Source: Methanotrichaceae archaeon (GTDB taxonomy: Archaea; Halobacteriota; Methanosarcinia; Methanotrichales; Methanotrichaceae). From it: a DNA stretch of 64,000 nt. Every line of letters starts with the position of its first letter. Within the stretch, counting starts at the first letter, position 1. Below the pieces are notes generated by a model. It did not search any database and was not told the origin of the DNA. It was given only the letters and a program-made list of their open reading frames with translations. The translations under genes and the position numbers were made by a program. The DNA is taken from the NCBI GenBank assembly GCA_963847095.1, contig CAWJYS010000021.1, positions 123,590-187,589 on the forward strand. Direction: 5' to 3'. This document shows positions 7,921 to 51,838 of the stretch, in pieces.

Positions 7921-8163
7921 ATGGTAGAGTTATCTCCGGATGATATAGATAAGATAGCAAACAAGGTCTTTGCAAAAATCGCTGAATCTATGATAAGAAA
8001 AGAGACTGGCGAGCCAACTCCAACCCCGACGCCAACTTGCCCAGAAGGTATGAAATTTGGATGCCCGAATAATGATGCTTTCGGATGTGATATAGGAGTG
8101 TTTGTGTGCACAGGTAAGGGATTCAAATGCCACCCCAAATATGTGGGATTTGAAAGGATATGA
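7921..8163 (+). CDS. Candidate RiPP precursor peptide (leader, PTPTPTPT linker, 5-Cys core)
   Basis: 80 aa reading MVELSPDDIDKIANKVFAKIAESMIRKETGEPTPTPTPTCPEGMKFGCPNNDAFGCDIGVFVCTGKGFKCHPKYVGFERI. There is no signal peptide, and it sits 81 nt upstream of an rSAM/SPASM gene. Confidence 0.45.
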   Translation: MVELSPDDIDKIANKVFAKIAESMIRKETGEPTPTPTPTCPEGMKFGCPNNDAFGCDIGVFVCTGKGFKCHPKYVGFERI

Positions 8164-8243
8164 AATCCAATATTTATAAGTTGGGCGGAGGCAAAATCCA
8201 GCATTAACTCAAACGCAGATTCATATTCTGATGGTAAGGCATC

Positions 8244-9422
8244 ATGCAAAGAGATATAATAAATGGGATTAGCAGTACTTTATTAGATCCTGATAACTTA
8301 ACCTCTTTCTGCATGAGCTTAAAAGAAGAGTTCAATTATACTCCGGAAGATTGCAGATCCTTCATTTATCAAGTAACTAAACAAATAAATGCAAAGCTAT
8401 TCCCCCCGATTACTGCATTAGAGCTGATAGTAACAGAAGACTGTAACCTAAGATGCGCATATTGCTTTGAGAAAGGTATGATTGGACGCGAGAAGATGTC
8501 TCTCAAAGTAGCTCAGGCAGCGATTGATCTTCTATTTGATTATTCTCAGGAGGAGAAAGACCTTTATATAACCTATTTCGGTGGAGAACCGCTTCTAAAC
8601 TTTCCTTTAATAAAATCTATTACTGAATATGTAGTGAAAAAGGAAGAATTCTCAGGGAAGAAAGTAGAATTCAGCATGACCAGTAATGGGGTTCTCCTCA
8701 ATGAATCAATGGCAGAATACCTTGCAATGCATAAGATAAATGTACTCTTAAGTATCGATGGATCTAAATTATCACATGATCTCTGCAGAGTAGATAAAAA
8801 AGGGCGCGGTACTTTTGAAAGATCAATAAAAGGATTGAAGATACTTAAGAAGTTTCAGCCGTGGATAGGAACAAGAATGACCGTTGTACCTGGTAATGTG
8901 CAAAGATTATACGAAGATGTAGTGGAGCTTCACGATCTAGGCATAAACCAATTTATCATTTGCCATGCCACGGGAATAGAATGGTCTAAAGAGGATATCG
9001 AGTCCTTTAGTTTGCAGATGAGAAAAATAGCGCATTGGTATAGGGAGAAATCCAGCAAAAATCTAAGGATATCTGTGCTAGATGAAGAAGATAGTGGATC
9101 AAGTTTTTTTGGCTGTCACGCTGCCAGAAATAGCATTTCCGTATCTGCAAACGGAGAGATATCTCCCTGTTCGAAGATTCTATCTTTGAATAATAAACGA
9201 TTGATATATAAGTTGGGCGATGTTGAATACGGCCTGATTAATGTTCTCAACAGGGCAGAGTTAATAAGTTGCTCAAAGCTTCGATCTGCTTGTAATGCGC
9301 TTCAGATAGCTGAAAGTTTCAGAGGAGGCTGCTTTGCAGCTAATTATGAGGATAATGGCGACATATTCCAGCCAAGTATTCAGGACCATGTATTCTCATT
9401 ACAATATCGATCTCTGTCATGA
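8244..9422 (+). CDS. Radical SAM enzyme with a C-terminal SPASM-type auxiliary-cluster domain (peptide-modifying maturase family)
   Basis: CNLRCAYC (CxxxCxxC) radical-SAM motif, followed by C-terminal Cys-rich CSKILS...CSKLRSACNALQ...GGCFAA. Confidence 0.85.
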   Translation: MQRDIINGISSTLLDPDNLTSFCMSLKEEFNYTPEDCRSFIYQVTKQINAKLFPPITALELIVTEDCNLRCAYCFEKGMIGREKMSLKVAQAAIDLLFDYSQEEKDLYITYFGGEPLLNFPLIKSITEYVVKKEEFSGKKVEFSMTSNGVLLNESMAEYLAMHKINVLLSIDGSKLSHDLCRVDKKGRGTFERSIKGLKILKKFQPWIGTRMTVVPGNVQRLYEDVVELHDLGINQFIICHATGIEWSKEDIESFSLQMRKIAHWYREKSSKNLRISVLDEEDSGSSFFGCHAARNSISVSANGEISPCSKILSLNNKRLIYKLGDVEYGLINVLNRAELISCSKLRSACNALQIAESFRGGCFAANYEDNGDIFQPSIQDHVFSLQYRSLS

Positions 9423-9454
9423 AGATCATTGCTAACGGTGACTATTCTGGTCAA

Positions 9455-9590
9455 TCCTCAAGGTATATTCCTCCTTTAGCTGGCTATAGCCATATAATCC
9501 AAAATAGCGCAAAGTAATTCACAGCAGAACTTGCCATCATCTTAAGAAGAGATTAAGGTAAAAGTTATTTGTGGAAGTTCCGGTAACTCA
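9455..9590. repeat. Copy 1 of a 135-bp direct repeat (promoter/leader-like)
   Basis: About 80% identical to 9893-10030. Shared core: ggctatagccatataa.ccaaaatagcgcaaagta. Confidence 0.6.
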
Positions 9591-9665
9591 GAACCTTAAG
9601 TAGAACTTTATCAGCCTTGATTAGCTACCAAATGAATTAATACTAGTAGTGTATTTAGCGGTTTT

Positions 9666-9776
9666 ATGGCAAACACACAAACAGATAAGAAGGTCGGTAA
9701 AGGAGAAGAAGAATCTAAAAAGGCCGGAAAAAATACAGGAGATACAACAGAAAAAGTAGTGGTGGTCAAAAGATAA
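9666..9776 (+). CDS. Small Lys-rich ORF (36 aa) downstream of repeat copy 1
   Basis: Reads MANTQTDKKVGKGEEESKKAGKNTGDTTEKVVVVKR. The only support is its position after a repeated upstream module. Confidence 0.2.
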   Translation: MANTQTDKKVGKGEEESKKAGKNTGDTTEKVVVVKR

Positions 9777-9892
9777 TCAGAATTCTTTCCGTTTTTTATA
9801 TTTTAGGACTTACGATTCGCAGAAAACTTCTTATAAATTTCTAATTTGACCTTTACGGCATGGATTTCCTGCTCGGATGGATGATTAGACAT

Positions 9893-10030
9893 GCCTTAAG
9901 GTATATTCACTCCATTAGGCGGCTATAGCCATATAAGCCAAAATAGCGCAAAGTATTTCATAGCTAAGCTTACCACCTTTTCAAAAAGAGATTAAAGCAA
10001 AGATAGTTAGCGGAAGTTCTGGAAATGAAG
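9893..10030. repeat. Copy 2 of the 135-bp direct repeat, immediately upstream of CDS 10038
   Basis: See copy 1. Confidence 0.6.
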
Positions 10031-10037
10031 GGATGAA

Positions 10038-10664
10038 ATGGACCTTAATTTAACAGGTGAACTTTGGGGTATGCCTATTAGTTTTATAGGCCAAATGACG
10101 GAAGAATCATCTATAGAGATTACTGATTGGTTACCTTCATTAATATCAATCGTCGTCGTGATAATAGGCGGTTTCATAACATATTCATCAACGATAAGTA
10201 TAGAAGAAAGAAAACTACAATATGAACTAAAAAAGAAAGCTTATTTTGATGTATTGGATGTAGTTCCTAAAATGGATGAAGTAATGAAATCTTGGGATAT
10301 ATATTGGTCTAATTACAATTCGCTTGATCGTGAAATGGAGAGGTTACAAACTGATAGGCCGAATTATATACAGAAAGACAAAGTTATAGTGGAAAGACTA
10401 AAAGAATCGGCAGATTTATTACAATCATATCAGATAAAAATACTAATTTGCGCTAATGAAGACGTAACCACTAGTTTTGATAAGGTAATGAACATGTTTA
10501 AAGATGAATTAAAGAGGTATGATTCATCTAACGAAGGTAAATATGATACCTTTAGTGACGAGCCTTATGATACCTTTAGCGGTATCCTATTCAAGGAATT
10601 AATACCAGCAATGAGAAATGATTTAATGAAAAGCAAAAAACAATGGTGGAAATTTTGGAAATAA
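10038..10664 (+). CDS. Hypothetical membrane-anchored protein
   Basis: 208 aa with one N-terminal TM segment (LISIVVVIIGGFITY). AT-rich. Confidence 0.5.
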   Translation: MDLNLTGELWGMPISFIGQMTEESSIEITDWLPSLISIVVVIIGGFITYSSTISIEERKLQYELKKKAYFDVLDVVPKMDEVMKSWDIYWSNYNSLDREMERLQTDRPNYIQKDKVIVERLKESADLLQSYQIKILICANEDVTTSFDKVMNMFKDELKRYDSSNEGKYDTFSDEPYDTFSGILFKELIPAMRNDLMKSKKQWWKFWK

Positions 10665-10974
10665 TTTTTATTTTTCTTTCATTCCCAGAGGTCACTCTGT
10701 TAACATGTTCATTCCATAGTTTATGAGAATAACCTCTTCCTGGAGCACACCATCACGATATCCATACCTTTACCAATATAAGGAGATTACAGAATTAGGG
10801 AGGGAGGATAGACCCATAAGGAGGCAAGCTTTTTCCTATCAGATCTACTCCCAATCTCATAATGTGATTTGTTCTAATATATAGATTGTGAGACAATATA
10901 AACGTTTAAATGTCATGTACCAATGATATAGAAGTTATTAAAAGCAAAATGATACAAACAGTTGGACGGGGGAA

Positions 10975-11277
10975 ATGGTCCGATATAGACCTGCTATCAA
11001 GATCGTGCTAAGGATTCTTGAGTGCATAGCTACAAGGCAATCAAGTGGGCGGGCCTTAAAAACTCATATAATCCAATGTGCAAACCTGAAGACCACTTCC
11101 GCTGAAAAGTATCTTGAGATGCTGAGAGAGGCGGGGTATGTCATTGAGAATAGAGAGAACTGGGGGGAGCGTGTGGTCATTGTATATGAGCTGACCCCTT
11201 TAGGGAGAGAGCGGTATAACTGGTTCAATAGGATCAATACCGAGCTTTTCAAGCCAAATGAATGGCTGGATGAGTGA
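10975..11277 (+). CDS. Small winged-helix transcriptional-regulator-like protein
   Basis: 100 aa with an archaeal wHTH-like pattern (TSAEKYLEMLREAGYV...ELTPLGRE). Confidence 0.5.
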   Translation: MVRYRPAIKIVLRILECIATRQSSGRALKTHIIQCANLKTTSAEKYLEMLREAGYVIENRENWGERVVIVYELTPLGRERYNWFNRINTELFKPNEWLDE

Positions 11278-16989: not shown

Positions 16990-17040
16990 AATAATTAGGC
17001 TTTTTCTGCCCGGAGAACAACATAAACTATATCTAAGTTA
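16990..17040 (+). promoter_or_regulatory. Conserved upstream module A (TTTTCTGCCCGG.GAACAACATAAACTATATCT.AGTTATCGCC)
   Basis: Four near-identical roughly 45-nt modules lie 40-60 nt upstream of four consecutive genes. The core is TATA-like. Confidence 0.55.
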
Positions 17041-17081
17041 TCGCCAATATCATCACCACAAAAAATAAAGGGAACGGGTAA

Positions 17082-17636
17082 TTGGTGAAAGATGAGCTAG
17101 AAATTTTATACAAAAATTTAGATCACATATCTAAAGCATATTTATCAACACAATCAGAAATAATTGCATGGGAAGCTATTTTTGCACTGGTGGTGGGCCA
17201 AATTTTTCTGGCTTTCATACAGCTAAATGATGATCAAAGAACAGGAATGATTGGCTCAGTTGTTATTATATTAGGATCTATTTTTTCACTGATTTGGTTT
17301 GCAGTATTTCCTAAAACTCAGCATTATCAAAGAGATAGGGTTAGAAAACTGAAAAAGTTAGAAGAACGCATTAGACGTATAGATCCAGAATTTTTAGGTT
17401 ATTCACATCCCGACAAAGACGTCGGAAAAATTAAAGCATGGCATATACTTAAAATAATTCCAGTTATATTTTCTATAATTTGGATATTTCTGTCCATAAT
17501 GTACCCTAATAAACAGCATACTACATATATCATAACGCTTGGAATCACAGTTATATGCTTTATAGCGATTTGGATTTTTATTTTGTGTTTATATGAAGAT
17601 TGGATCAAGAAATGGTGGTTACCTTCTCAGGGATAG
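17082..17636 (+). CDS. Polytopic membrane protein
   Basis: 184 aa with four hydrophobic segments. Preceded by module A. Confidence 0.5.
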   Translation: MVKDELEILYKNLDHISKAYLSTQSEIIAWEAIFALVVGQIFLAFIQLNDDQRTGMIGSVVIILGSIFSLIWFAVFPKTQHYQRDRVRKLKKLEERIRRIDPEFLGYSHPDKDVGKIKAWHILKIIPVIFSIIWIFLSIMYPNKQHTTYIITLGITVICFIAIWIFILCLYEDWIKKWWLPSQG

Positions 17637-18027
17637 ATGCAATACATTCAAACGCCGGTCTTAGTAAAGTGTGCATGAAGTTGGATAATAACCAAGATAG
17701 ATCCTAATATCCCTGCAAAGACTGTGATTAAACTTGGAGCATCAAGATTTGCAGGAAATAACTTGAAACTCACCCATGTAAGGAAACATGAACCTAGGAG
17801 CAAACCGCTTATTTTTGCCCATGATCCTTGGTGAATCTGCATTCATCATAAAGGTATTAACCTTAAAGATAAATAGTTTTTGTGAACCTAAAATCCATAT
17901 TTTGACTACATATTGTGATTAAGTATTCTCATTGCACATAGCATTTGTCTTTTTCTGTTGCTTTTGGTAAATGTCCGGAAGAAGAGATAAAAGAAAAGGG
18001 CAATTGGTGGCGGTTCTGGAAATAAGA

Positions 18028-18312
18028 TTAAGGAATAGGGTATTTAAGTCCACCACTCACCACAAAATCAAAGATCATTGCCGGAAGTTTGACATGGGTA
18101 ATTACAATTTTACCGCTGTACACTTTATTACCTGATTTAAAAACACCTTCAGCATCACCGGCATTAATTCCAAATTCGTTTGATTCCGCTCTTCCTCTCC
18201 AGCTATTCATACCAACTTGACTAACACTGTGATATATTTGCCAATCACCAATGGAAATGGATTTTCCATCCATTGTTATATTCCCACCATATCCGGCTAA
18301 GCGTTCGGACAT
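18028..18312 (-). CDS. Hypothetical small protein (94 aa)
   Basis: ORF only. Confidence 0.25.
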   Translation of the reverse strand: MSERLAGYGGNITMDGKSISIGDWQIYHSVSQVGMNSWRGRAESNEFGINAGDAEGVFKSGNKVYSGKIVITHVKLPAMIFDFVVSGGLKYPIP

Positions 18313-18370
18313 ATAATGATAGATTCATGGGTAAATATATAAGGGTTAGGCTCAGGGTGAAACTATTAAC

Positions 18371-18420
18371 GTTTTCTACCGGGTGAACGACGTAAACTAT
18401 ATCTCAGCTACCGCCATCCC
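18371..18420 (+). promoter_or_regulatory. Conserved upstream module B
   Basis: See module A. Followed by GGAGGGAGAAGAGC-TTG-AAA-CTC. Confidence 0.55.
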
Positions 18421-18444
18421 CATCAATAACGGAGGGAGAAGAGC

Positions 18445-18981
18445 TTGAAACTCAAAGAATTTGTAATTTTGATAGCCATGGTTCTAGCGGTGCTATTGAT
18501 AGCTGGATGCGCTTCAAGCGGAAAAAATATAGGACCATATACAGTAACTTTTGATGGTATTGATGAAGAATACAAATACGGCGGTGAAAGTTCTAAGGCA
18601 AAGGAGTTTAAAACAGATTCAGGGGTTTCATATACAGAATATAGTAGGATGTTTTGGAAAGAGAATATGGAAGGAGATATAACAATTGGAGTCAATACTT
18701 ACGCTATCCCGATGTATAATGATAACCAAAATCCAAGAGAAGTTTTAAAAAGTCTTATAGAACCAAATGATAATATAACGATAGAAAATATAGAGATGGA
18801 TGGCAAACCCGGCATTTTGGCAAAAGAAAAGTTTATTTGGGCGGGCGGTGAACCCGGTGCTACATATATGCTATTTTATTGGCTTGATCCAAAAACTAGA
18901 GTTGGAGCTTATTTTATGGAAAGCCCAAAGAATAAATGGGATGATGCAAGCAAAGCAATGATGTCCATCAAGGTATCCTGA
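18445..18981 (+). CDS. Secreted lipoprotein-like protein (TTG start)
   Basis: MKLKEFVILIAMVLAVLLIAGCASS signal peptide with a lipobox Cys. The RBS GGAGG lies 9 nt upstream of TTG. Confidence 0.6.
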   Translation: MKLKEFVILIAMVLAVLLIAGCASSGKNIGPYTVTFDGIDEEYKYGGESSKAKEFKTDSGVSYTEYSRMFWKENMEGDITIGVNTYAIPMYNDNQNPREVLKSLIEPNDNITIENIEMDGKPGILAKEKFIWAGGEPGATYMLFYWLDPKTRVGAYFMESPKNKWDDASKAMMSIKVS

Positions 18982-19035
18982 ATACCCATCCCTTTTTTAG
19001 CCACTTACCTTATTGAAATGCTCATGAAGCTAAGG

Positions 19036-19085
19036 CTTTTCCTACCCGGTGAACAACATAAACTATATCTGAGTTATCGCCATCA
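19036..19085 (+). promoter_or_regulatory. Conserved upstream module C
   Basis: Carries the identical leader GGAGGGAGAAGAGC-TTG-AAA-CTC seen in module B. Confidence 0.55.
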
Positions 19086-19110
19086 CCTTCATCAAAGGAG
19101 GGAGAAGAGC

Positions 19111-19737
19111 TTGAAACTCGTTGAAGCTGGAATAATCGCTATAACACTATTTTGTTTAGCAGGGAATGCATATGGAGTTATGCAAGTCTATGATAGTGAT
19201 TTTGGCAAAATTAAAGTTGATTTGCCCATGGTGCTAATCCCAAAAGATGGGAATACAGGTACTTGGATAGACTTAGTTAAGGAAGGATCAGAAAAGCCTG
19301 TCATCTCTATACGCATGCAAACAACTTATGGGGAAGATTTTAAAAAATACGCAACTTCATCAGGCTTTAAGAGTATACCGATTGAAACAACAACCAATGA
19401 CGGATATAAAATAATTTATTACTCTGACCACAGTGGCACTAATAGTCAATATCAACCTGTATATCATTATACTGCGTTTATTGATTACTTGAAAGATAAG
19501 GGTAAGATAGTGCAAATGTGGACTTATTCAGAAGTAAATGGGAAAGAAGGAGCAGTAGCTAGATTTGATAAAGATCAATTCCTTGAAATATCCAAATCCT
19601 TTGCTGTTATAAGTGAATCAGAAGCGCAAGCTATAGTGGCGGAAACTGCAAAAACAAACCAATCGCCGGGATTTGGATCATTCTTCGCTATTCTGAGCCT
19701 TCTCGGAGCTATTTTTATCATGCAAAAGATAAAGTAG
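19111..19737 (+). CDS. Secreted protein with a PGF-CTERM archaeal sorting signal (TTG start at 19111; the tracked ORF from 19018 is over-extended)
   Basis: N-terminus (M)KLVEAGIIAITLFCLAGNAYG. C-terminus SPGFGSFFAILSLLGAIFIMQKIK, i.e. a PGF motif, TM helix and basic tail. Confidence 0.6.
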   Translation: MKLVEAGIIAITLFCLAGNAYGVMQVYDSDFGKIKVDLPMVLIPKDGNTGTWIDLVKEGSEKPVISIRMQTTYGEDFKKYATSSGFKSIPIETTTNDGYKIIYYSDHSGTNSQYQPVYHYTAFIDYLKDKGKIVQMWTYSEVNGKEGAVARFDKDQFLEISKSFAVISESEAQAIVAETAKTNQSPGFGSFFAILSLLGAIFIMQKIK

Positions 19738-19996
19738 ATATAGATATTTTATTTTTTCCTACTTCTTTATTTTCCCGGTTCCTTAGAGATCATCCATAAT
19801 ACCCCAAATAGAGCTACAAAGACAGCTACCACATTAGGAGCATCAGGAAATAGCCGAAATACCGCCCATGTAAAGAAGATAGATGCTAGAACTAACCCGC
19901 CAATTCTAGCCCATGATTCTTGATGAATGAAGGACATCCATCATTGAAATATTAGTTTCGTAGGTATAAGGGTTTGGCTCAGGGCGTAACTTTTAG

Positions 19997-20045
19997 CCTT
20001 TTCTGCCCGGTGAGCAACGTAAACTATATCTAAGTTACCGCTGTC
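19997..20045 (+). promoter_or_regulatory. Conserved upstream module D
   Basis: See module A. Modules B and D share an additional roughly 30 nt upstream (ggctcagggyg.aac). Confidence 0.55.
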
Positions 20046-20104
20046 ACTACCATCAAAAAAAAGTCAAACCCGGAGGGTAAAATATTTTCTCAAATTTTGG
20101 GGTA

Positions 20105-20773
20105 TTGATACAGAATGCGCAATCATCAAGTGTGCTGATTTGGGTAGCAATTATATCTGCACTATCAGCTATAGCATCAGCTTCAATATCAGCTTATCTA
20201 GTCGGTAAAGTGAATTATGATACAAATAAGAAGTTAGAGCAACAAAGGTTTGAGAACAACAACAGATTAGAAAAAGAGAAAGCTAAAAATCTAAAAATCC
20301 AAAAACAATGGGAAGTATTCAGCAAGTTAAAAGGTATTCAAGCGGCATTACCTCAAGATTATATAAATACATATCAAACTGTTGTAGGAATCGTCAGTCA
20401 ACAAGCTGCATCTAGACTACATTCTGAAGAAGAAAATCAACGACTTCATATTGATGAAGCTAGAAGGTTAATTGATAGATCATACGAAAATAAAAAAACA
20501 TTTGCTAGGAATCGACAAAAATTATATGAAATAATAGGTTTAATTCTGATTTTATTTCCAAATAAACCCGAATTGCATGAAAAGATCAATCCTATATATT
20601 CACAAATAACAGTATTTGAATCCGAATTTAATGAAACTAATCTAATAGAAGAGATTGAAGCCTTAGTTCCACATATTTTTGGCGATCTTAAGAAATGGGT
20701 TGAAACATTTGATCATGAAAAAGTAGAAGAGAATCTTGATAAGATTAAAGAATGGAAAACGGGGAAAGTATGA
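20105..20773 (+). CDS. Membrane-anchored coiled-coil protein
   Basis: N-terminal TM segment (VLIWVAIISALSAIASASISAYLVG), then a charged coiled-coil region. Confidence 0.5.
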   Translation: MIQNAQSSSVLIWVAIISALSAIASASISAYLVGKVNYDTNKKLEQQRFENNNRLEKEKAKNLKIQKQWEVFSKLKGIQAALPQDYINTYQTVVGIVSQQAASRLHSEEENQRLHIDEARRLIDRSYENKKTFARNRQKLYEIIGLILILFPNKPELHEKINPIYSQITVFESEFNETNLIEEIEALVPHIFGDLKKWVETFDHEKVEENLDKIKEWKTGKV

Positions 20774-21295
20774 AAAAGTAAACCAACTAACAGTAGAAAA
20801 CGTATGTCAACAGCTAAAGGATTTACTTAATTATCTTCAAGCAGAAATACATACTTCGGAAGAGGATTCTATACTGATCATTAATTTTTTTCAAAGGTTA
20901 CTCTAAATTTAGGATTTAGGGTTTCCCATCTCCTCTTTTATATAGCCGTGTTTTAAGCATTCTGTTTTGCTTTATTGAAATGCTCATGGGAAGCTGGATA
21001 ATTACCGCGATTGATGCTAATATCCTGGCAAAGACAGTAGCCAATAATAGTATACCTCTATAAGCCCCTTACAAGCCCATAGCGAAGCTTTGCAGATAGC
21101 TTGAAGGGTAAACCTTATTATGTAGATCCATGTGCAATTTTGGGCCTACCATTGCTTCGCGGCATATTTTCAAGCCCTTAGAGTAACAAGACTGGCGACT
21201 GGTATCCAAAAAAGCTTATATCTTAGAAGCCCTATCTCACATTAAAACATGGAGAAAGTGATACAATCAAAATCACTACCAGCAAAATGTTTCCA

Positions 21296-37756: not shown

Positions 37757-39103
37757 TCAATGTCTTGATGGTCCAACCCTCTCAAAATCGATAAATCCCT
37801 GCTCGACATCTACGGATACAAGTTTAACGCGAATCCTGTCGCCGACATCAACACCCTGGTACCCGTTTTTCAGCATCCCTTCAATGGGAATACTGAGAAG
37901 CCGAACCCATGTGCCTTTCATAGATGCACCCGTAACCATGGCATCAAACTGTTCTCCGATTCTCGATTCAAGGAGAAGCGCAGCTGCGGATTTGCCGACC
38001 TGCCGCTCAACTTTAGTGGCAGCATCCTCTTTTTCGGTGCAATGAGCCGCCAGGTCATCCAGCTCATCCTTGCTGTAAGGCACAGGTATTGCGTCTATTG
38101 CGTCTATTGCGGCTTTCAGCAAACGCTGCGTAATCAGATCAGGGTACCGACGATTTGGAGCGGTGGAATGGGTATAGTCCTTGACGGCTAGGCCGAAGTG
38201 CCCTGTGGGATTTTCCCCCGGGAGTTCTGCAACATATTCACCCGATCCTAAAAGTTTGATAACCGCTAAAGACAGGTCAGGGAATCGAAGTGGGTCGGCT
38301 GCTTTCTCCATCGTTAGAAACATCTCCAGCGCTTTTGAGTCTGGATTTTTAGGAAGCTTGAACGCGTGTTCCGCTGCGATCTCGACGATTCGTTCCCATC
38401 GTTTTGGAACGCGGACCACGCGGCGAATTGATGGAATTCTTCTGGAGGAGAGATACCTGATGGTCACGCCGTTTGCCGAGATCATGAAATCTTCGATAAT
38501 TTCCTTGGCGCGGTTCTTTTCTTCCACTTGCAGATCGAGGATGGAATCACCCTCAAATATCGGTCTTGCCTCAATCGTTTCAAGACAAAGCGCCCCTCGA
38601 AGGTGCCGAAAATTCCTCATGCTTTGTGCCGCTCTGTCCTGCAGGCGCAGATTCTCAGCCAGTCCATTTACGGCTGCAATCGCCGGAGGCACAGATGCAT
38701 TTCCTTCCAGCCATGCGGCAACGCTGTTATAGGCGAGCTGTGCATGATTGCGGACAAGCGCCCGGTAGGCGTCCGAATCCTGAAGCGATCCGTCCGCGCC
38801 AATCACCATCTCAATGACAATGGCCAGACGATCCTCGTTGAGATTCAAGGATGTGAGGTTAGTGGAAAGCTTTTCCGGAAGCATTGGGAAAATCTTGGCG
38901 GCAGTATAAACCGAGGTCGTGTTGTGGCGCGCTTGTTCGTCGATGGCTGATCCCTTTTTAACGAGTGCGTCCACGTCCGCCACGGCGACCATTATCTTTA
39001 CTCTGTCGTCAGGCATCGCTACAGCCACAGTTAGCTGATCCAGGTCGCGAGAGTCGTCATTGTCGATGGAGGCCCAGATGAGATCTCTCAAATCACGCAC
39101 CAT
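37757..39103 (-). CDS. RNB-domain 3'-5' exoribonuclease (RNase II/R family) with a C-terminal S1 domain
   Basis: ASIDNDDSRDLDQLTVA RNB active-site region and an S1-like C-terminus (GDRIRVKLVSVDVEQGFIDF). Confidence 0.8.
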   Translation of the reverse strand: MVRDLRDLIWASIDNDDSRDLDQLTVAVAMPDDRVKIMVAVADVDALVKKGSAIDEQARHNTTSVYTAAKIFPMLPEKLSTNLTSLNLNEDRLAIVIEMVIGADGSLQDSDAYRALVRNHAQLAYNSVAAWLEGNASVPPAIAAVNGLAENLRLQDRAAQSMRNFRHLRGALCLETIEARPIFEGDSILDLQVEEKNRAKEIIEDFMISANGVTIRYLSSRRIPSIRRVVRVPKRWERIVEIAAEHAFKLPKNPDSKALEMFLTMEKAADPLRFPDLSLAVIKLLGSGEYVAELPGENPTGHFGLAVKDYTHSTAPNRRYPDLITQRLLKAAIDAIDAIPVPYSKDELDDLAAHCTEKEDAATKVERQVGKSAAALLLESRIGEQFDAMVTGASMKGTWVRLLSIPIEGMLKNGYQGVDVGDRIRVKLVSVDVEQGFIDFERVGPSRH

Positions 39104-39504
39104 TACACGCCGTCCGTTGTCGCTGGCACTTGAATTTGGTCAAGCTCAGCAAGGGCTTCTGCAGAGAAGTCCGGGAGCAATCCGCGCTCAAGCATTGCCC
39201 TCTTTGCGATGTCCTGTAAGATCGAACGGGCCTGATTATCATTCGTATTCATGGGATGCCTTCCTTTCCATCAATGTAGAGATGCGCTGATATTCATAAT
39301 CATTTGCCAGGCCTGCGCCTGCGGATGAAACCCCCTGGTCTTCACGATCTAGGTAATGGGTAAGAATCACATAGCGAGCCTGTCCTAAAACGCCTCGAAC
39401 TATGGAGATAAGGATAGATGCTTCGAGGCGACTTCACCATTGGCCGCGGCCTCAATCTAAAAATACCATGGGAACTGTAAAGGGCATAAGGCGGTAGTTA
39501 GTAC

Positions 39505-41677: not shown

Positions 41678-41953
41678 TTACTTTCTCTTGTATATCTCAT
41701 CATGGTGTCTGAGATCGAGCAACTTCACCGTCATATTCTCCTCATCCACTTCGAAAACCAATACAAAGGACTTCTCCAGGTGAACCCTTCTCAGCCCCTT
41801 CAAATCGTATCTTAAAGGCTTAAAGTGCTTGGGGTTATCTAAAATCTCCTCTGTTTTATTCAGCACTGCATCGTAAAGAGACCTGTTCTTCTTGAATAGC
41901 TTCTTCAAATGAGCCTTCAGATCCTCATCGATCAGCAGCCTGTAGCGCGGCAT
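41678..41953 (-). CDS. RelE/ParE-family type II toxin
   Basis: KPLRYDLKGLRRVHLEKSFVLVFEVDEE pattern. Confidence 0.7.
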   Translation of the reverse strand: MPRYRLLIDEDLKAHLKKLFKKNRSLYDAVLNKTEEILDNPKHFKPLRYDLKGLRRVHLEKSFVLVFEVDEENMTVKLLDLRHHDEIYKRK

Positions 41954-41955
41954 CT

Positions 41956-42201
41956 TCAGCTTTCCTCTAATGATCTCTTCAGGCTTTCTAGATCCGAGAA
42001 CTCCTCGAACTTGCCCTCCTGACGAACCTTCTGCAGCTTTTCAACGTATTCATCCTTGACCGTATAAACTGCGTCAGTATAGATATCAATGAGAGTCTCA
42101 AGCATGTCCTCCATCCTATCGACCTTTTCCCTCAGAACCTTCAGATCATTTTGAATGGAGCTTATAGCTGTATTTTCCGCCTCAATCATATCCAAAACCA
42201 C
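41956..42201 (-). CDS. Putative cognate antitoxin (coiled-coil, 81 aa)
   Basis: Immediately upstream of and co-oriented with RelE. Confidence 0.45.
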   Translation of the reverse strand: MVLDMIEAENTAISSIQNDLKVLREKVDRMEDMLETLIDIYTDAVYTVKDEYVEKLQKVRQEGKFEEFSDLESLKRSLEES

Positions 42202-42233
42202 TCCTACTTATTGGGGTTGAATATTAAAGCTTG

Positions 42234-42620
42234 TCATTTATTTGGAGCTTTTTTGAGCCGATGTCTTCCTTGACATATTGGGTCTTGTTCATTAAGAAAT
42301 CTCGCAGTTCTGCTCCGATTTACTCCTGCAAATCCCTGGACATAGAGGGCCTCACTCTCGATCTGTGTCTTGAGCCTGGGCCGGATGGACTTGCGGGTGA
42401 CCAGATCTACAGGACGGCCCAGCAGATCCTCAAGGAAGAATTCGAGATCCATGTACCCGTTGAAGGTGGCTGAACCCTGGAACTCAACCAGGATGTCTAC
42501 ATCGCTATCCGGACGGGCCTCATCCCTGGCAACAGACCCGAAGACTGCCAGAGTTTTCACCCCCATTCGGGTCAGCTCATCTCGATGGACGGCTAGCGTC
42601 TGCAGGATCTCTGATCTCAT
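42234..42620 (-). CDS. Minimal nucleotidyltransferase (MNT) of a HEPN/MNT-type module, with an atypical roughly 30-aa C-terminal extension
   Basis: LAVFGSVARDEARPDSDVDILVEF (GS...DxD) NTase motif. Confidence 0.7.
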   Translation of the reverse strand: MRSEILQTLAVHRDELTRMGVKTLAVFGSVARDEARPDSDVDILVEFQGSATFNGYMDLEFFLEDLLGRPVDLVTRKSIRPRLKTQIESEALYVQGFAGVNRSRTARFLNEQDPICQGRHRLKKAPNK

Positions 42621-42764
42621 CTTGATCCTCTCAAAGATTACTATGGAGATCTTTGATATAAAGGGGTTTTGAAATTCGGAAATGACAAAACATAATAATT
42701 GAGGTAAAAAATATATCCTCAGGTAAAGCTAAATAGGCTTGAACGTCCTTCATTCGAAATTACT

Positions 42765-43787
42765 ATGTACCAAAGTCAAATCCGAGATAGTCAAATAACT
42801 GCTCTAAAGGAAAAGGTAGAAAAGAAAAATTATGGAAAATATTTATATAAAATTAAGTTATTGCGTGTGCGGAATTTTGAAGATCAAGACGTTATCTTTG
42901 AATTCCCAGTAACCGCTCTGATTGGCCCAAATGGCGGTGGGAAAACCACAATCTTGGGTGCAGCTGCTTGTGCTTATAAGGAAATATATCCTAGGCAATT
43001 CTTCGTTAGAAGCGGCAATATCGATGACGGCATGCAAAATTGGAAAATTGAGTACGAGCTTGTTGATAAAGGAATTAATCCTAAGAATAATATCAAAAAA
43101 ACCGCTAGCTTTCATAGTTCTAAGTGGAGTCGTGAGACACTAAGTCGCAGCGTAGCAGTGTTAGGAGTTTCTAGAACGGTTCCAGCAACAGAGAGGCGGG
43201 AACTTAGAAAATACGCTTCAAATGCTTTTACTGTTGATGTTTCAAAGATAACTGAAATAGGAGATGCAATTTCATCTGCCGTAGAAAAGATATTAGGAAA
43301 AGACATCACTGGATATACACATATAATAGTAGATCAACATGGGCGTGTATCGCTATTAGCGGGTGTGACCAACAAAGGTACTCATTATTCTGAATTTCAC
43401 TTTGGAGCGGGAGAATCCAGTATAATACGTATGGTCATGAAAATTGAGTCAATGCCCGATAATTCTTTGATTTTAATAGAAGAAATAGAGAATGGCTTAC
43501 ATCCGGTTGCAACCGTTAGCATGGTAGAATATTTGATAGATGTAGCCGAAAGGAAAAAGATACAAGTTATTTTTACAACTCATTCTGAAGAAGCATTAAA
43601 ACCGCTTCCGTTTCAAGCCGTTTGGGCGGCTATTGACGGAAAGGTAGTGCAAGGAAAGCTGGATATCAGCGCGTTACGTTCTATTAGTGGAGAAATCGAC
43701 GCCAGGCTTGTAATTTTCACTGAAGATCGTTTCCTCAAAAAATTGGGTAGAATCCATGATTCGCGCCTATGGTGGTATTGCCGTTGA
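42765..43787 (+). CDS. ABC-type (AAA_21/AAA_15-like) ATPase, defence-system-like
   Basis: Walker A GPNGGGKTT, signature-like FGAGESS, Walker B LILIEEIENGLHP, H-loop TTHS. AT-rich. Confidence 0.8.
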   Translation: MYQSQIRDSQITALKEKVEKKNYGKYLYKIKLLRVRNFEDQDVIFEFPVTALIGPNGGGKTTILGAAACAYKEIYPRQFFVRSGNIDDGMQNWKIEYELVDKGINPKNNIKKTASFHSSKWSRETLSRSVAVLGVSRTVPATERRELRKYASNAFTVDVSKITEIGDAISSAVEKILGKDITGYTHIIVDQHGRVSLLAGVTNKGTHYSEFHFGAGESSIIRMVMKIESMPDNSLILIEEIENGLHPVATVSMVEYLIDVAERKKIQVIFTTHSEEALKPLPFQAVWAAIDGKVVQGKLDISALRSISGEIDARLVIFTEDRFLKKLGRIHDSRLWWYCR

Positions 43788-43901
43788 TCTAGTAAATGTG
43801 CACGCGATGGAAGGTGATGGTACCGCAGTCAAAGTTAATTTGTATCACAATATCGATCCAAGTGCTAAGGTACTTCTATCTGTTATATTGATGGTGATTC
43901 T

Positions 43902-44270
43902 ATGCAAGAAGAATCTACTAAACATAGGGTATTCCGTCTGCCTGGAGCAATACCAGAGTCTTTCATTTATAGCGAAGTAGTGGATGTTCTATCTGATAAT
44001 TCTGGCATACTTGCAGTTTCTTTGCATAAAAAATATGAAGATGCAGAAAGAGTAAGCACCCTTATCCGAGAAATCAAAATTACTAACAGAGATCCTCATC
44101 TTCTGTATTCACAAGTCGGTAGAGCATTAGGACTTATTCCACCGGAAATTATTATCGGAGGATTCTTAAATGTGTGGTGCACAGCATATCCTGAAAAAGT
44201 AAAGATTCTACTTGGACCGATAATAGATTTATTGCCCAAAGAAGAAACTCAAAGAGAATTGCATGAATGA
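43902..44270 (+). CDS. Hypothetical 122-aa protein, putative partner of the ATPase
   Basis: Co-oriented and 115 nt downstream. No recognisable domain. Confidence 0.4.
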   Translation: MQEESTKHRVFRLPGAIPESFIYSEVVDVLSDNSGILAVSLHKKYEDAERVSTLIREIKITNRDPHLLYSQVGRALGLIPPEIIIGGFLNVWCTAYPEKVKILLGPIIDLLPKEETQRELHE

Positions 44271-44286
44271 TTCAACTCAGAAATAG

Positions 44287-44520
44287 AGAAGTAACCTGGG
44301 GGCAATAGAGCTGCTTATTGATGAACTGGCGGCAAGAGAGGTGGCCTTGCAGCAGGGAGTTCCAATCATCGGGTTTCCCGGCATCTTAATCCGTGCCTGT
44401 CAGCAGGGCATGATGGAGCCGGAAGATGTGAAAAGCGCCTTGGAGGAGTGCCGGAGGCAGGGAACCCATTATTCTCCCAGGCTAATAAATGAGGTATATA
44501 ACAGATTGAAGAGGCCCTGA
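44287..44520 (+). pseudogene. C-terminal remnant of a DUF3368-family (PIN-like toxin) gene, lacking a start
   Basis: ...IGFPGILIRACQQGMMEPEDVKSALEECRRQG... resembles DUF3368 C-termini. The open frame begins directly after a stop. Confidence 0.35.
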
Positions 44521-44521
44521 A

Positions 44522-44789
44522 ATGAAAAAGAAACACGCACCACACGAGCCCAAGGAAGAGGTACTTTCTGCAGCTGATGCCTTTAAGGACGCAGAGCAGT
44601 CTGAAGCCCGCTGGCAGACCTTTGAAAGAGATCAGAAGCTACAGTCGGGTGCTGGTCGAGCTGCCTGAGCCGGCCTTTTCCAAACTGGAGAAGCTAGCCA
44701 GGGCGCGCAGGAGGACCGTCGCCAATCTTGTGGAAGAGGTTATCATCGGCCTGGTGGATGCTCTTACTCCTTCGGAAGAAGAGGCTTAA
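44522..44789 (+). pseudogene. RHH (CopG-like) antitoxin-like gene, apparently frameshifted
   Basis: The start Met frame (MKKKHAPHEPKEEVL...) ends at 44668. The RHH-like part (RVLVELPEPAFSKLEKLARARRRTVANLVEEVI) continues in another frame with no start. Confidence 0.35.
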
Positions 44790-45155
44790 AGAACAGATAG
44801 AAACAAGGTGAATGTAGTCCGATGCCCACTATAAAGTTTGACGATCAGGGCAGAATTCTGCTCCCGGCCGGTATGATCTCCATGGCGTCGGCAAAGGCAT
44901 CGATGGCCAGCAGCTCCCCGCCTCCCCGGCGGATGCATACGCCCGAAGCCTCATGGTCAGCTCTACCTCTAGAGCGCCGCCTCCCCAGAAGCCTGCCGCT
45001 TAAATTACTCTACTTTCCAACTTCTGTCATTTGACTTCAGCCTTGGCAGTATGTACTAAATCGAAGACGATCTATAATCCTCATAAAACTATGTCAGGTG
45101 CATAAGACTTTGCCTATCTCGATTATCAATTTTCGCAGATGATCAGCGTGGATCA

Positions 45156-45261: not shown

Positions 45262-48033
45262 TTGGCCGGCGCGGTTGGGAACATGTTTGAAATCAGACTG
45301 ATCATCGATGATCGAGAGGTAACGGTCCCCGAGGGGACGACCATTCTCGATGCAGCCCGCAAAGCGGGCTCTTATGTGCCGGCACTTTGCCATCACCCGG
45401 ACTTGAAGCCCATAGGCTCCTGCAAGCTGTGCATCGTCTCTGTAAAGGGCCTTGATTACTATCCTACATCCTGCAATACTCTGGCGGAGAATGGAATGGT
45501 GGTACAGACCCGGACAGAAGAGCTGCAGGAGATGAGAAGACACACCCTGGAGATGCTCTTGGCTCTCACCAATCATCCCACCTCCTGCCTTTTTTGCGAG
45601 AGGAGGAACGAATGCACCGACCTGCGCGAGTGCATGAGGAAATTTCCGGTGACCGTGGGCTGCAAGTACTGCCCCAAGGATGGGGAGTGCGAGCTGCAGG
45701 AGGCGGTGCAGTTCGTCGGCCTGGAAAACATCAGATATCAGCTCTCTTTTAGGAATATGCCGGTTTTAAGAGAGCCCTTCTTCGATCGCAATTACAACCT
45801 CTGCATCATGTGCAGCCGCTGCGTGCGAACCTGTCAGGAGGTGCGCGGGGTGGGTGTGCTGTCCAGCAATCCCGATTTTCACCGCATGCACTGGATAGGC
45901 CCCGAGTCTCTGCAGGACTCAGACTGCAAGTTCTGCGGCGCATGTGTGGATGTCTGCCCCACCGGTGCCCTCTACGCCCGGTCTGAGAAATGGGTGCGGC
46001 CAGAGAAGACGGTCGTCACCGTCTGCCCCTACTGTGGCGTTGGCTGCCGATTAGAGCTTAGAGTCAAAGAAGACAGAATTATCTCTACCGCTCCTGACAA
46101 AGAAAGCCCGGTAAATCGGGGGCAGGCATGCATTAAAGGCCGTTTTGGACTGGAAGAGATTGTCCATCATCCCGACCGTTTGACCACTCCCCTGATAAGA
46201 CGCAACGGCAGACTTGAGGAGGCCAGCTGGGAAGAAGCACTCGACCTGGTCGCCAAGAGGTTCACTGAGATTAAAAATAAATACGGTCCTGATTCACTGG
46301 GAGCATTATCCTCTTCCAGGTGCACCAATGAGGAGAACTACCTGGTGCAGAAACTTGCACGGGCAGTGTTTCACACCAACAATGTGGACAACTGCGCGCG
46401 AGTCTGCCATGCCCCATCGGTCACAGGGCTTGCCGCCTGCTTCGGGAGCGGAGCAGCTACCAATTCCTTTGACCAAATTGTTGACGCCGATGTCCTGTTC
46501 GTTATCGGTTCCAATACTACCGAGGCTCATCCGATCGTCAGTCTGAAGATGATCAAGGCAGCTCACAAGGGCGCAAAGATCATCGTGGCTGACCCCCGTA
46601 AGATCGAGCTGGTCGACCTGGCAACAGTATGGCTCAACCTAAAGCCGGGAACTAATATCGCCCTGCTGAATGGAATGATGAATGTCATCCTCAGGGAAGG
46701 GCTGGAAGATAGGGACTTTATTGCCAGGCGTACTGAGGGCTTCGAGGAATTGCGGAAGGTGGTTGAGGAATATCCGCCAGAACGGGCTGCCAAAATAACC
46801 GGAGTTGCGGAGGAAGATATCATTGAGGCAGCCCGACTCTATGCTGAGGCAAAAAAGGCAATGATCATCTATAGCCTGGGAATAACCGAGCATATTACTG
46901 GAACCGCCAATGTAATGTCCTTAGGCAACCTGGCAATGCTTACGGGCAATGTGGGACGCCGGTCGACCGGGGTAATGCCTCTCCGCGGGCAAAATAACGT
47001 GCAGGGGGCCTGCGATATGGGGGCTCTTCCCAATGCTTACGTTGGTTATCAGCCGGTAGCGGACCCGAATATACAGTCCAAATTCGAACAAGCCTGGAAG
47101 GTCAAATTGCCCGCAACTCCTGGTCAGACCTCCACTCAAATGTTAGAGCGTGTTACAGAAGGGGGAATCAGGGGGCTTTATATCCTGGGGGAAGATCCTG
47201 CCCAGACCGACCCTGATACCAATCGGGTCCGTGCTTCACTCAAAGCCCTGGACTTCCTCGTTGTCCAGGAGATATTCCCTACTGAGACGACCAATTATGC
47301 CGACGTTATCCTGCCTGCTGCCAGCTTTGCGGAGTGTGACGGAACCTTTACCAATGGCGAGCGGCGCATTCAACGGGTGCATAAAGCGATACCTGCAATT
47401 TGTGGTCTGGAGAACTGGCAAACAATCTGCCTTATTGCCCAAAAGATGGGCTATCCGATGAACTACAGTCACCCTTCGGAGATTATGGATGAAATTGCCT
47501 CTCTTGCACCGATGTTTGCCGGAATAAGTTTCGCGCGGCTGGGTACCGGGGGGCTGCAGTGGCCCTGTCCGTCTATTGAACATCCGGGCACAGAGACGTT
47601 GCATGTTGAGAAATTCAGCCGGGGCCTCGGAAAATTTAACGCCGTGGAGCACAAATTCCCTACCGAGCAGACTGATCCTGATTATCCTTTGATTCTTACC
47701 ACCGGTAGGAGGAGAGAGCATTACAACTGCGGCTCCATGACCCGGCGCTCCAGTGGAATCATGTAGATATGGCCGGAGGAAGCAATAGAAATAAGCCCTG
47801 CGGATGCAAAAGAGCTTGGGGTTGAGGACGGGGAGATGGTTCTAGTCAGTTCCAGGCGAGGCGTTGTTAGGACAAAAGCAAGAGTTACCGATAAGTCACT
47901 ACGCGGCGTAGCCTTTATGTCCTTCCACTACCAGGATGTTCTTACTAACCTTCTTACCAACGCTGCCCTGGATCCTCAGGCAAAGACGCCGGAGTATAAG
48001 GCATGCGCCATACGCATAGAGAAAATCACTTGA
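45262..48033 (+). pseudogene. fdhA: Formate dehydrogenase alpha subunit (NuoG-like 2Fe-2S and 4Fe-4S N-terminus plus molybdopterin domain; Cys, not Sec, at the active site), interrupted by one in-frame TAG at 47764-47766
   Basis: 2Fe-2S CHHPDLKPIGSCKLC, ferredoxin CxxCxxCxxxCP twice, MopB VCPYCGVGC, active-site CARVCHAPS, and a C-terminal TGRRREHYNCGSMTRRS...VSSRRG...AFMSFHY. Both ORFs (45262-47766 and 47836-48033) are in the same frame, with 23 sense codons between them. Confidence 0.8.
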
Positions 48034-49926: not shown

Positions 49927-51838
49927 CTAACCCTCAAGATCTCTGAACATCATACGCATTTCATAGACCCCTTCCTCACTTCTCTTCTCCATATCAAATC
50001 CCATATTTTTAAAGAGGTTAAGCATCGGCTTATTCTCAACTAAGACATCCGCAGTAAATCCCAGCAAGCCTCGCCTTCTGGCCAGACGGGTGAGATAAGT
50101 GAGCAGATCGTGGCCTACGCCCATATTTTGATACTCATCCTTTACCACCAGCGCAACCTCGGCGGTATGCATCTTCTCATTTATCTCATATTGCCCAATT
50201 GCGGCGATGGTTTCCTTACGGTCTCCCTCAACAATAGCCAGTATCATCATACTATTAGCATAGTCTACTATCCCGAATTCCTGCAGCCGCTTATGGGGCA
50301 TATCCATTCTTGCAGACATGAACCTTCGGTACATGCTCTCATTGGAAAGAGCATAGAAAAAGTCCTTCATCAAGGGCTCATCTCCGATCTTCACAGGCCT
50401 CAGGAGAATATTAAGCCCACTCCTGGTTGTCCTGAATGTCTCCAAAGCTACTGGATATACCCCTTTCACCCCAGGTATGAACGCCTGATCTTCATAGATG
50501 AGCAAACGCTTCTTGGCCTCAACAATTAGCCACGGCCTGAACTTGGGATGGGCAATAGCAATCAGATCCATGGCACGTTCCCTGATATTTTTGCCGTGGA
50601 GATATGCTATGCCATACTCAGTTACTACGTAGTGGACATCCCCTCGGGTCAGAGTCACTCCCGTACCCTCCTGGAGAGATGGCACTATCCTCGAAATGGT
50701 ATCGTTGACGGCAGTTGAGGGAAGGGCCAGGATGCTCTTTGCCGCCCGGCGCAAGCACGGCTCCTCTCATGAAATCTGCCTGGCCGCCGACGCCGAAGTA
50801 GAATGTCCCGCTCAGTGATTCTGCGGTCGCCTGGCCGGTCAAATCGATCTCCAGAGCGCTGTTGATTGCTGTCATCAACTTATTTTTGGCAATAATCAAA
50901 GGGTTGTTTACATAATCGATGGTCTTGAACTCGATAGTTGGATTCTCATCCAGAAACTCGTAAGTCTCCTTCTTGCCCATGCAATAAGAAGCCACAGTCT
51001 TACCCGTATCGATGGACTTCTTGGTGTTATCCACCACGCCCTTCTTCATCAGATCAACGATGCCGTCGCTCAAGAGCTCAGTATGTACTCCGAGATGCTT
51101 TTTCTCACCCAGGTAGGAGACCACAGCATTGGGTATGATGCCATATCCAACCTGCAGCGTAGATCCATCCTCAATGATCCGGGCAACATACCTGCCTATC
51201 GCCTGGATGATGTCCCCTGGGTCTTCTACCGTATACTCCAGCAATGGTTCATCGTAAGGAATAATGAAATCTACATCTTTTATATTTATGAATCCATCAC
51301 CCTGGGTGCGAGGCATATGGGAGTTTATCTGGGCCACGATCAGCGATGCCTTCTGGGTCGCAGCCTTTACGATATCTACGCTAATCCCCAGGCTCATATA
51401 GCCGTGCTTATCTGGAGGAGATGTCTGGATTAACGCCACGTCTATTGGTATTATCTCCCTTCGGATGAGGCCGGGAACGGCGGAAAGAGATATGGGGGTG
51501 TAGTCTGCTGCGCCTCTGTTGATCGCATTTCTTGTGCCGTCGCTGATGAAGAATGAGTCGATCCGGAAGTTATCACGGAATTTTTCATCTATGTAGGGAG
51601 CAGCGCCCAGGGTCCATACGTGTATTAGCTCGATACCGAAAAAGGCTTTGGGATTGCTGCCAACGAAGTTCACCAGCGCCTGAACCAGATACTGGGGCTC
51701 GCCGCAGCCCGTGCCTATGAAGATCTTATCGCCAGCATGTATATGGCTGAATATCTCTTCTTCCGATGCGAACTTCTCTGGCCAAGCCTCCTTTAGATTC
51801 TCCAAGAAATTGATTCTTTCCATTGTTTTCCCTGCCAT
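49927..51838 (-). pseudogene. Acetyl-CoA hydrolase/transferase-family protein fused to a C-terminal GNAT acetyltransferase domain, split by a +1 frameshift near 50737-50742
   Basis: The N-terminal ORF (50618-51838) ends ...GGQADFMRGAVLAPGGK. The C-terminal ORF (49927-50754) continues ...KSILALPSTAVND..., then a GNAT motif (QNMGVGHDLLTYLTRLARRRG). An extra base in ggcggcaaaGagcatcctg disrupts the GGKSILALPST motif. Confidence 0.7.

Follow-up and report, generated by a model that had tools for sequence, protein, structure and literature searches.

The locus and its reading frames

The window, by which is meant the whole stretch of 64,000 nucleotides analysed here, carries three ORFs of interest, all on the forward strand, at 42765-43787 (340 aa), 43756-43980 (74 aa) and 43902-44270 (122 aa). 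The ORF scan agrees in this respect with the initial annotation, which had also described the region correctly as AT-rich (GC 0.380 for 42693-44281 versus 0.467 for the whole window). The 74-aa ORF had been placed in a third frame, but a frame check shows that only two frames are involved: the ORFs starting at 42765 and 43902 share one of them and the 74-aa ORF stands alone in the other. Frame 0 has stops at 43785, 43815, 43836 and 43866, and frame 1 is open between the two large ORFs. Joining frame 0 (to approximately 43733), frame 1 (to approximately 43872) and frame 0 again gives a repaired protein of 501 aa. On the evidence of the sequence, the 340-, 74- and 122-aa ORFs are taken to be consecutive pieces of one gene of approximately 501 codons. 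A frameshift had indeed been suspected at this position, in a longer second gene; what is found is a +1/-1 pair in the single gene.

Read along the forward strand, the locus begins with a non-coding stretch (42693-42764) that moves with the gene; it is A/T-rich, contains a TATA-like 'aaaaatatat' and is presumed to hold the promoter and leader. The parts of the gene itself are named here by reference to HEC-04 (Hma-embedded candidate 04), a single-gene defence system whose one protein is a fusion of ABC ATPase and TOPRIM domain (Payne et al., bioRxiv 10.1101/2024.01.29.577857). Codons 1-323 lie in frame 0 at 42765-43733 and, as identified with PADLOC HEC-04 and Pfam, cover the ABC ATPase domain and the first TOPRIM strand. 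They are followed at 43733-43734 by the first frameshift, where alignment with DNA of the relatives on contigs L001 and L002 reveals one extra C (the window has CGTTTCCTC, the intact relatives CGTTT-CTC), and after which frame 0 runs into a TGA at 43785-43787. Codons 324-369 (43735-43872), the middle of the TOPRIM domain as placed by PADLOC HEC-04 324-367, are readable only in frame 1 and lie for the most part inside the 74-aa ORF. The second frameshift, at 43872-43873, is the loss of one C, the window reading GGTA-CTTCT and the relatives, in the DNA alignment, GGTGCCTTCT or GGTTCCTTCT. The 139 nt between the two sites are thus coding in the other frame, and the ancestral reading is back in frame 0 after the second; the DNA alignment with L001 and L002 contains no other indels. 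Codons 370-501 and the stop (frame 0, 43873-44270) specify the TOPRIM DxD motif and the C-terminal helical region. Within this part only 43902-44270, the 122-aa frame, is an ORF, and in a frame-0 scan the TAA at 43866 is followed by no start codon before the ATG at 43902. The right end of the transferred cassette is 44271-44281, the homology to contigs L002 and L003 stopping at 44281.

The ATPase motif set proposed in the initial annotation, and its assignment to the defence-type AAA_21/AAA_15 clade, are borne out. The 340-aa ORF matches Pfam AAA_21 (E 2.2e-16) and AAA_15 (E 3.8e-16), and contains a Walker A motif GPNGGGKT (residues 54-61; the Lys60 codon is at 42942-42944), a signature-like GAGES (residues 214-218, 43404-43418), a Walker B motif LILIEE (residues 235-240, 43467-43484) and an H-loop THS (residues 272-274, 43578-43586). 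Of the TOPRIM residues, Glu320-Asp321 have their codons at 43722-43727, and the DxD motif, Asp376-Gly377-Asp378, is encoded at 43890-43898. Across 40 homologues, K60, E320, D321, D376 and G377 do not vary, and the conservation of D378 is at least 90%. The codons for E320, D376 and D378 are thus all present in the DNA. Those of the DxD motif, however, come after all four frame-0 stops and still precede the ATG at 43902. They therefore belong to no ORF, and the E...DxD set is absent from any expressed ORF as the sequence stands. It follows that the nuclease is not made from the window sequence; the fusion of ABC ATPase and TOPRIM domain is missing, and the longest product has 340 aa. Translation would end at 43787 and would give an ATPase with only the first TOPRIM acidic residues.

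Relationship to HEC-04 and predicted fold

The repaired 501-aa protein matches the PADLOC HEC-04 model (PDLC04149) with E 1.7e-214 and 711 bits, its residues 1-493 aligning with positions 1-492 of 494, that is, from end to end. The unrepaired pieces fall on successive parts of the same model: the 340-aa ORF on positions 1-326 (E 6.7e-162), the frame-1 piece on positions 324-367 (E 7.1e-10) and the 122-aa ORF on positions 380-492 (E 1.3e-25). The last of these had been regarded as a small partner with no recognisable domain and is instead the C-terminal end of the same protein. The profile search that had been proposed for 43902-44270, against DUF4435, Toprim and other effector families, yields no family in Pfam, and it is the PADLOC HEC-04 model that recognises the ORF. 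The downstream ORF is conserved together with the ATPase, as had been expected of a module, but as part of one polypeptide and not as a partner.

A search of protein databases with the repaired protein returned 2206 homologues, the best of which are intact proteins of approximately 500 aa with identities of 94%, 89%, 86%, 83% and downwards. The 94% relative is a metagenomic protein of 501 aa, and five more proteins of its 90% cluster, found in other metagenomes, are uninterrupted at both indel sites. One scan of the GTDB genome collection produced five distant relatives (50-54% identity), and full-length relatives in a plasmid collection reach at most 57%, those on enterobacterial plasmids being only approximately 24% identical. 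The ancestral gene encoded a fused ATPase-TOPRIM protein, as is the case in all close relatives. The window therefore holds a disrupted member of HEC-04, not a functional one. The reading we favour, namely that the sequence as given contains a single HEC-04 gene interrupted by two indels, is assigned a probability of roughly 0.85.

Several published observations on HEC-04 bear on this assignment. Cloned alone in E. coli, a bacterial HEC-04 protects against T4, T5 and other coliphages; defence is lost on substitution of the Walker A lysine (K62A) or of the TOPRIM metal site (E319A/D375A/D377A), and expression induced with IPTG is toxic (10.1101/2024.01.29.577857). In the same work, the TOPRIM domain can be superposed on its counterpart in Burkholderia OLD (BpOLD), and the ATPase, which is of the ABC type, has inserts that differ from those of OLD and GajA (10.1101/2024.01.29.577857). 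The window protein resembles HEC-04 in its end-to-end match and ABC ATPase-TOPRIM architecture, in the nearly identical positions of its key residues (K60/E320/D376/D378 against the tested K62/E319/D375/D377) and in its occurrence as a single-gene cassette with changing neighbours. It differs in that two one-base indels disrupt the reading frame, in its archaeal (Methanothrix-like) host, the tested gene being of bacterial source and assayed in E. coli, and in its position among toxin-antitoxin genes and not within an Hma system.

The fold was considered using the AlphaFold model of the intact 94% relative (P0001), which has a pLDDT of 82. The best Foldseek matches of this model are an OLD nuclease (6p74, E 7e-13, over the full length) and then the Gabija protein GajA (8u7i), although these whole-protein matches are driven mainly by the ATPase part. 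An N-terminal ABC-type ATPase fold is present, as in the nucleases of the OLD family. For the C-terminal part, the fold search having been made with the whole protein, the model contains a beta-alpha-beta-alpha-beta unit at residues 315-375, a candidate for the TOPRIM fold, with E320 after strand 1 and the DGD after strand 3, and this unit is followed by a helical tail (helices at 397-489). Sequence profiles are less informative here. Pfam gives no family for the 74-aa ORF, the 122-aa ORF or the repaired C-terminal 205 aa, the last of which has no match to TOPRIM, OLD-like TOPRIM or DUF4435, and the C-terminal part alone matches PADLOC ATPase-Toprim_I-B weakly (E 0.031). With the intact relative, NCBIfam returns only sub-threshold P-loop matches, and none of the OLD-specific models of Pfam or NCBIfam reaches its cut-off. 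Searches of the PDB by sequence, both with the single protein and with a 40-sequence profile, recover OLD and PtuA proteins by their N-terminal P-loop region alone, and no solved HEC-04 structure was found among them.

Other ATPase-TOPRIM proteins are more remote. From the OLD nucleases and GajA (6p74, 8u7i) the window protein is set apart by a sequence similarity limited to the P-loop region and by the lack of any Pfam match to OLD-like TOPRIM or DUF4435; moreover, the window gene has no helicase partner, such as GajB or the UvrD of class 2 OLD systems. IbfA of the IncI1 plasmids R64 and pUA1135 is a homologue of PADLOC class HEC-04 that exerts an abortive-infection-like block on a P22-like phage (PMC12111858). 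Like the repaired window protein, it is a single protein of two domains, ATPase and TOPRIM, and it has approximately 520 aa and aborts phage infection (PMC12111858), but it is a distant relative only; enterobacterial plasmid relatives are approximately 24% identical to the window protein. A 521-aa AAA family ATPase from an E. coli IncF plasmid, which may not be IbfA, scores 111 bits on HEC-04 as compared with 711 for the window protein. The effector of type I-B retrons is similar in that the ATPase-Toprim_I-B model (PDLC02914) aligns with residues 204-439, through the TOPRIM domain (E 1.8e-17), and AriA, AbiLi and HEC-01A match the ATPase part. The scores of retron I-B, PARIS AriA/AriB, AbiLi/AbiLii and HEC-01A/B are nevertheless far weaker than that of HEC-04. 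No retron reverse transcriptase or ncRNA is present, and the only Rfam match in the whole window is one tRNA (tRNA-Pro). In the two-gene systems of ATPase plus TOPRIM (PARIS, AbiL, HEC-01) the division is by design, whereas the apparent split in the window is damage. The Gabija-, Septu- or PARIS-type system envisaged in the initial annotation thus gives way to the described single-gene HEC-04, of which this is an ordinary and probably dead copy.

As to how an intact member of the family might act, the protein of approximately 500 aa would consist of an N-terminal ABC ATPase (SMC/Rad50-like), a C-terminal TOPRIM nuclease and a helical tail, an architecture of the OLD/GajA type. The ATPase part probably senses some cue of infection and would then permit cleavage of nucleic acid at the TOPRIM metal site; such cleavage would stop phage growth and might carry a cost for the cell. 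Defence has been shown with a bacterial member in E. coli, and an intact archaeal member may act likewise.

The cassette and its surroundings

Homology of the DNA to relatives is found only within 42693-44281; it starts at 42693 with L002 and L003 and at 42709 with L001, and beyond its ends the flanks are unrelated to the relatives' contigs. What is shared is therefore a cassette of approximately 1.6 kb, comprising a single gene and approximately 70 nt upstream. In the four contigs of close relatives no conserved partner gene was found 3' of HEC-04, and the flanks differ each time: the intact gene has HicAB and a DDE transposase as neighbours in L002 and a DCD-domain protein and purL in L010, and there is nothing informative beside it in the short contigs L001 and L003. 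Since the homology is confined to the gene and the 70 nt or so before it, and the neighbours vary, the unit is a single gene without a conserved partner. The segment 42693-44281 would then represent one horizontally acquired, AT-rich, single-gene HEC-04 anti-virus cassette. In L010 (2831-5725), the contig of the intact relative P0125, HEC-04 lies directly downstream of a 760-aa DCD_N/DCD/dUTPase protein and a 203-aa unknown. The domain content of this neighbourhood recalls dCTP-deaminase defence genes, and these surroundings may be a defence island.

The description of the neighbourhood in the window as a defence and addiction islet is fair, although only in part supported by matches above Pfam cut-offs. 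On the reverse strand lie a ParE/RelE-family toxin at 41678-41953 (ParE_toxin, E 6.9e-10), preceded upstream by an 81-aa putative antitoxin at 41956-42201 whose role is deduced from its position, and a 128-aa MNT-type nucleotidyltransferase at 42234-42620 that diverges from the cassette (NTP_transf_2, E 1.4e-18). At 128 aa this protein is approximately 30 aa longer than expected for an MNT antitoxin. No HEPN partner gene follows it in the ORF map, and it may be an orphaned antitoxin. The DUF3368 and RHH genes of the proposed islet, which lie on the forward strand on the right-hand side of the cassette, do not reach the Pfam cut-offs. The former is a C-terminal remnant at 44287-44520 (E 2.9e-4 to 3.7e-4) that abuts the right edge of the cassette and appears from its sequence to have been shortened, the N-terminal half being missing. 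It is the first of a string of small remnants (44287-45034, forward strand) that also includes the weak RHH ORF at 44577-44789 (E 5.7e-4) and an AbrB/MraZ-like ORF at 44822-45034, likewise below the cut-off.

Further irregularities occur elsewhere in the window. The fdhA-like gene at 45262-48033 (forward), for a formate dehydrogenase alpha subunit, has an in-frame TAG at 47764-47766 where the close relatives P0130 and P0133 have Trp (TGG). Beyond this codon the Molydop_binding C-terminus extends, without a change of frame, to 48033; what is seen is a nonsense mutation or read-through, not a frameshift. The acetyl-CoA hydrolase/transferase gene at 49927-51838 (reverse) consists of two overlapping ORFs separated by a one-base frameshift at a short run around 50735-50745, positions 1-81 of the AcetylCoA_hyd_C profile being in one ORF and positions 77-153 in the other, and its downstream piece ends in a GNAT acetyltransferase domain. 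At 37757-39252 (reverse), an ORF of 448 aa for an RNB/RNase II-type ribonuclease is preceded by a 49-aa ORF, with an overlap in TAATG, an arrangement that may be due to a further frameshift or to a small gene coupled to the larger one. Patches of low GC (0.32-0.39) are found at 8001-11000 and 17001-21000. They hold genes for a radical SAM/SPASM protein (8244-9422), an 8xMP membrane protein (17082-17636) and a PGF-CTERM protein (19018-19737), along with several ORFs without any family, and they may be other acquired islands. The PGF-CTERM protein and the cluster-mates of window proteins, which bear the names Methanothrix sp. or Methanotrichaceae archaeon, point to a Methanothrix-like archaeal host.

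Nature of the two indels and state of the gene

The dN/dS ratio of the repaired gene against intact relatives is 0.08-0.09, and the shifted stretch of 139 nt, read in frame 1 and compared with L001, has 11 synonymous and no non-synonymous differences. This pattern identifies frame 1 as the ancestral reading of the stretch. Together with the low dN/dS, it also implies that the inactivation is very recent and that purifying selection acted on the gene until then.

The most serious alternative is that the indels are errors of sequencing or consensus and that the HEC-04 gene is intact and functional in the organism, which we regard as possible but unlikely. The two indels are of opposite sign, stand 139 nt apart and leave the frame restored, and the lack of non-synonymous changes between them and the dN/dS of approximately 0.09 over the whole gene would equally suit a gene that is intact; the one-base frameshift at a short run in the acetyl-CoA hydrolase gene could, in addition, point to an error-prone assembly. 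Against this, the Logan contig L009 (from a k-mer based assembly of run ERR10755943, 3170 nt) is 100% identical to window positions 41757-44926, with both indels included, although it may stem from reads that also went into the source contig, in which case the two would not be independent samples. Both indels are, moreover, in C or CC contexts and neither is in a long homopolymer, and the TGG-to-TAG substitution in fdhA, being atypical for indel error, argues for true gene decay. Given that the locus is a broken HEC-04 gene, it is thus likely that the indels are real in the organism, and the most likely state of the locus is that of a pseudogene of very recent origin in a Methanothrix-like archaeon.

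The two-gene module of the initial annotation, an ABC ATPase with a separate small effector or partner of unknown fold, is very improbable. It has in its favour that two co-oriented ORFs exist, that split ATPase/TOPRIM systems such as PARIS AriA/AriB and HEC-01A/B are known, and that a GGTGAT, a candidate ribosome-binding site, occurs 6-11 nt before the start codon at 43902. The 122-aa ORF, however, corresponds to the final quarter of the HEC-04 model, all close relatives are encoded as one polypeptide, and the intact relatives of approximately 500 aa cover all three pieces in one chain. In addition, what lies between the two ORFs is coding sequence, in shifted frames, for HEC-04 positions 324-379, and the invariant DxD is lost from both ORFs, whereas the published E/D/D mutant is defence-dead. 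A related idea, to which we likewise attach very little weight, is that the split is real and tolerated, the fused HEC-04 being in the course of fission to a two-part system like PARIS or HEC-01. Were this true, a 340-aa ATPase and a 122-aa helical tail would still be made, without nuclease activity, and might act together, or as a decoy or regulator.

Programmed recoding, by ribosomal +1 and then -1 frameshifting or by transcriptional slippage at the A6 run at 43737-42, has next to no likelihood: the run is 3 nt after the first indel, and a +1 slip of tRNA-Lys there would lead into the ancestral frame with a single Ser-to-Leu change, but the frame would also have to shift by -1 in a separate event at 43872, a site lacking any slippery sequence; six A residues are few for slippage, and the arrangement occurs in no relative. 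A chimeric assembly of two intact alleles was also considered and is ruled out, the relatives being without indels in the region.

If the locus is read as one broken HEC-04 gene, it should be annotated as a disrupted member of a single-gene defence system already described and not as a new ATPase-plus-partner module, and the finding matters little beyond annotation. Cassettes of the HEC-04 type occur in metagenomic contigs at 76-94% protein identity, and those with datable neighbours look archaeal. A very recent loss in this lineage is in keeping with the toxicity of over-expressed HEC-04 and with the rapid turnover of defence genes.
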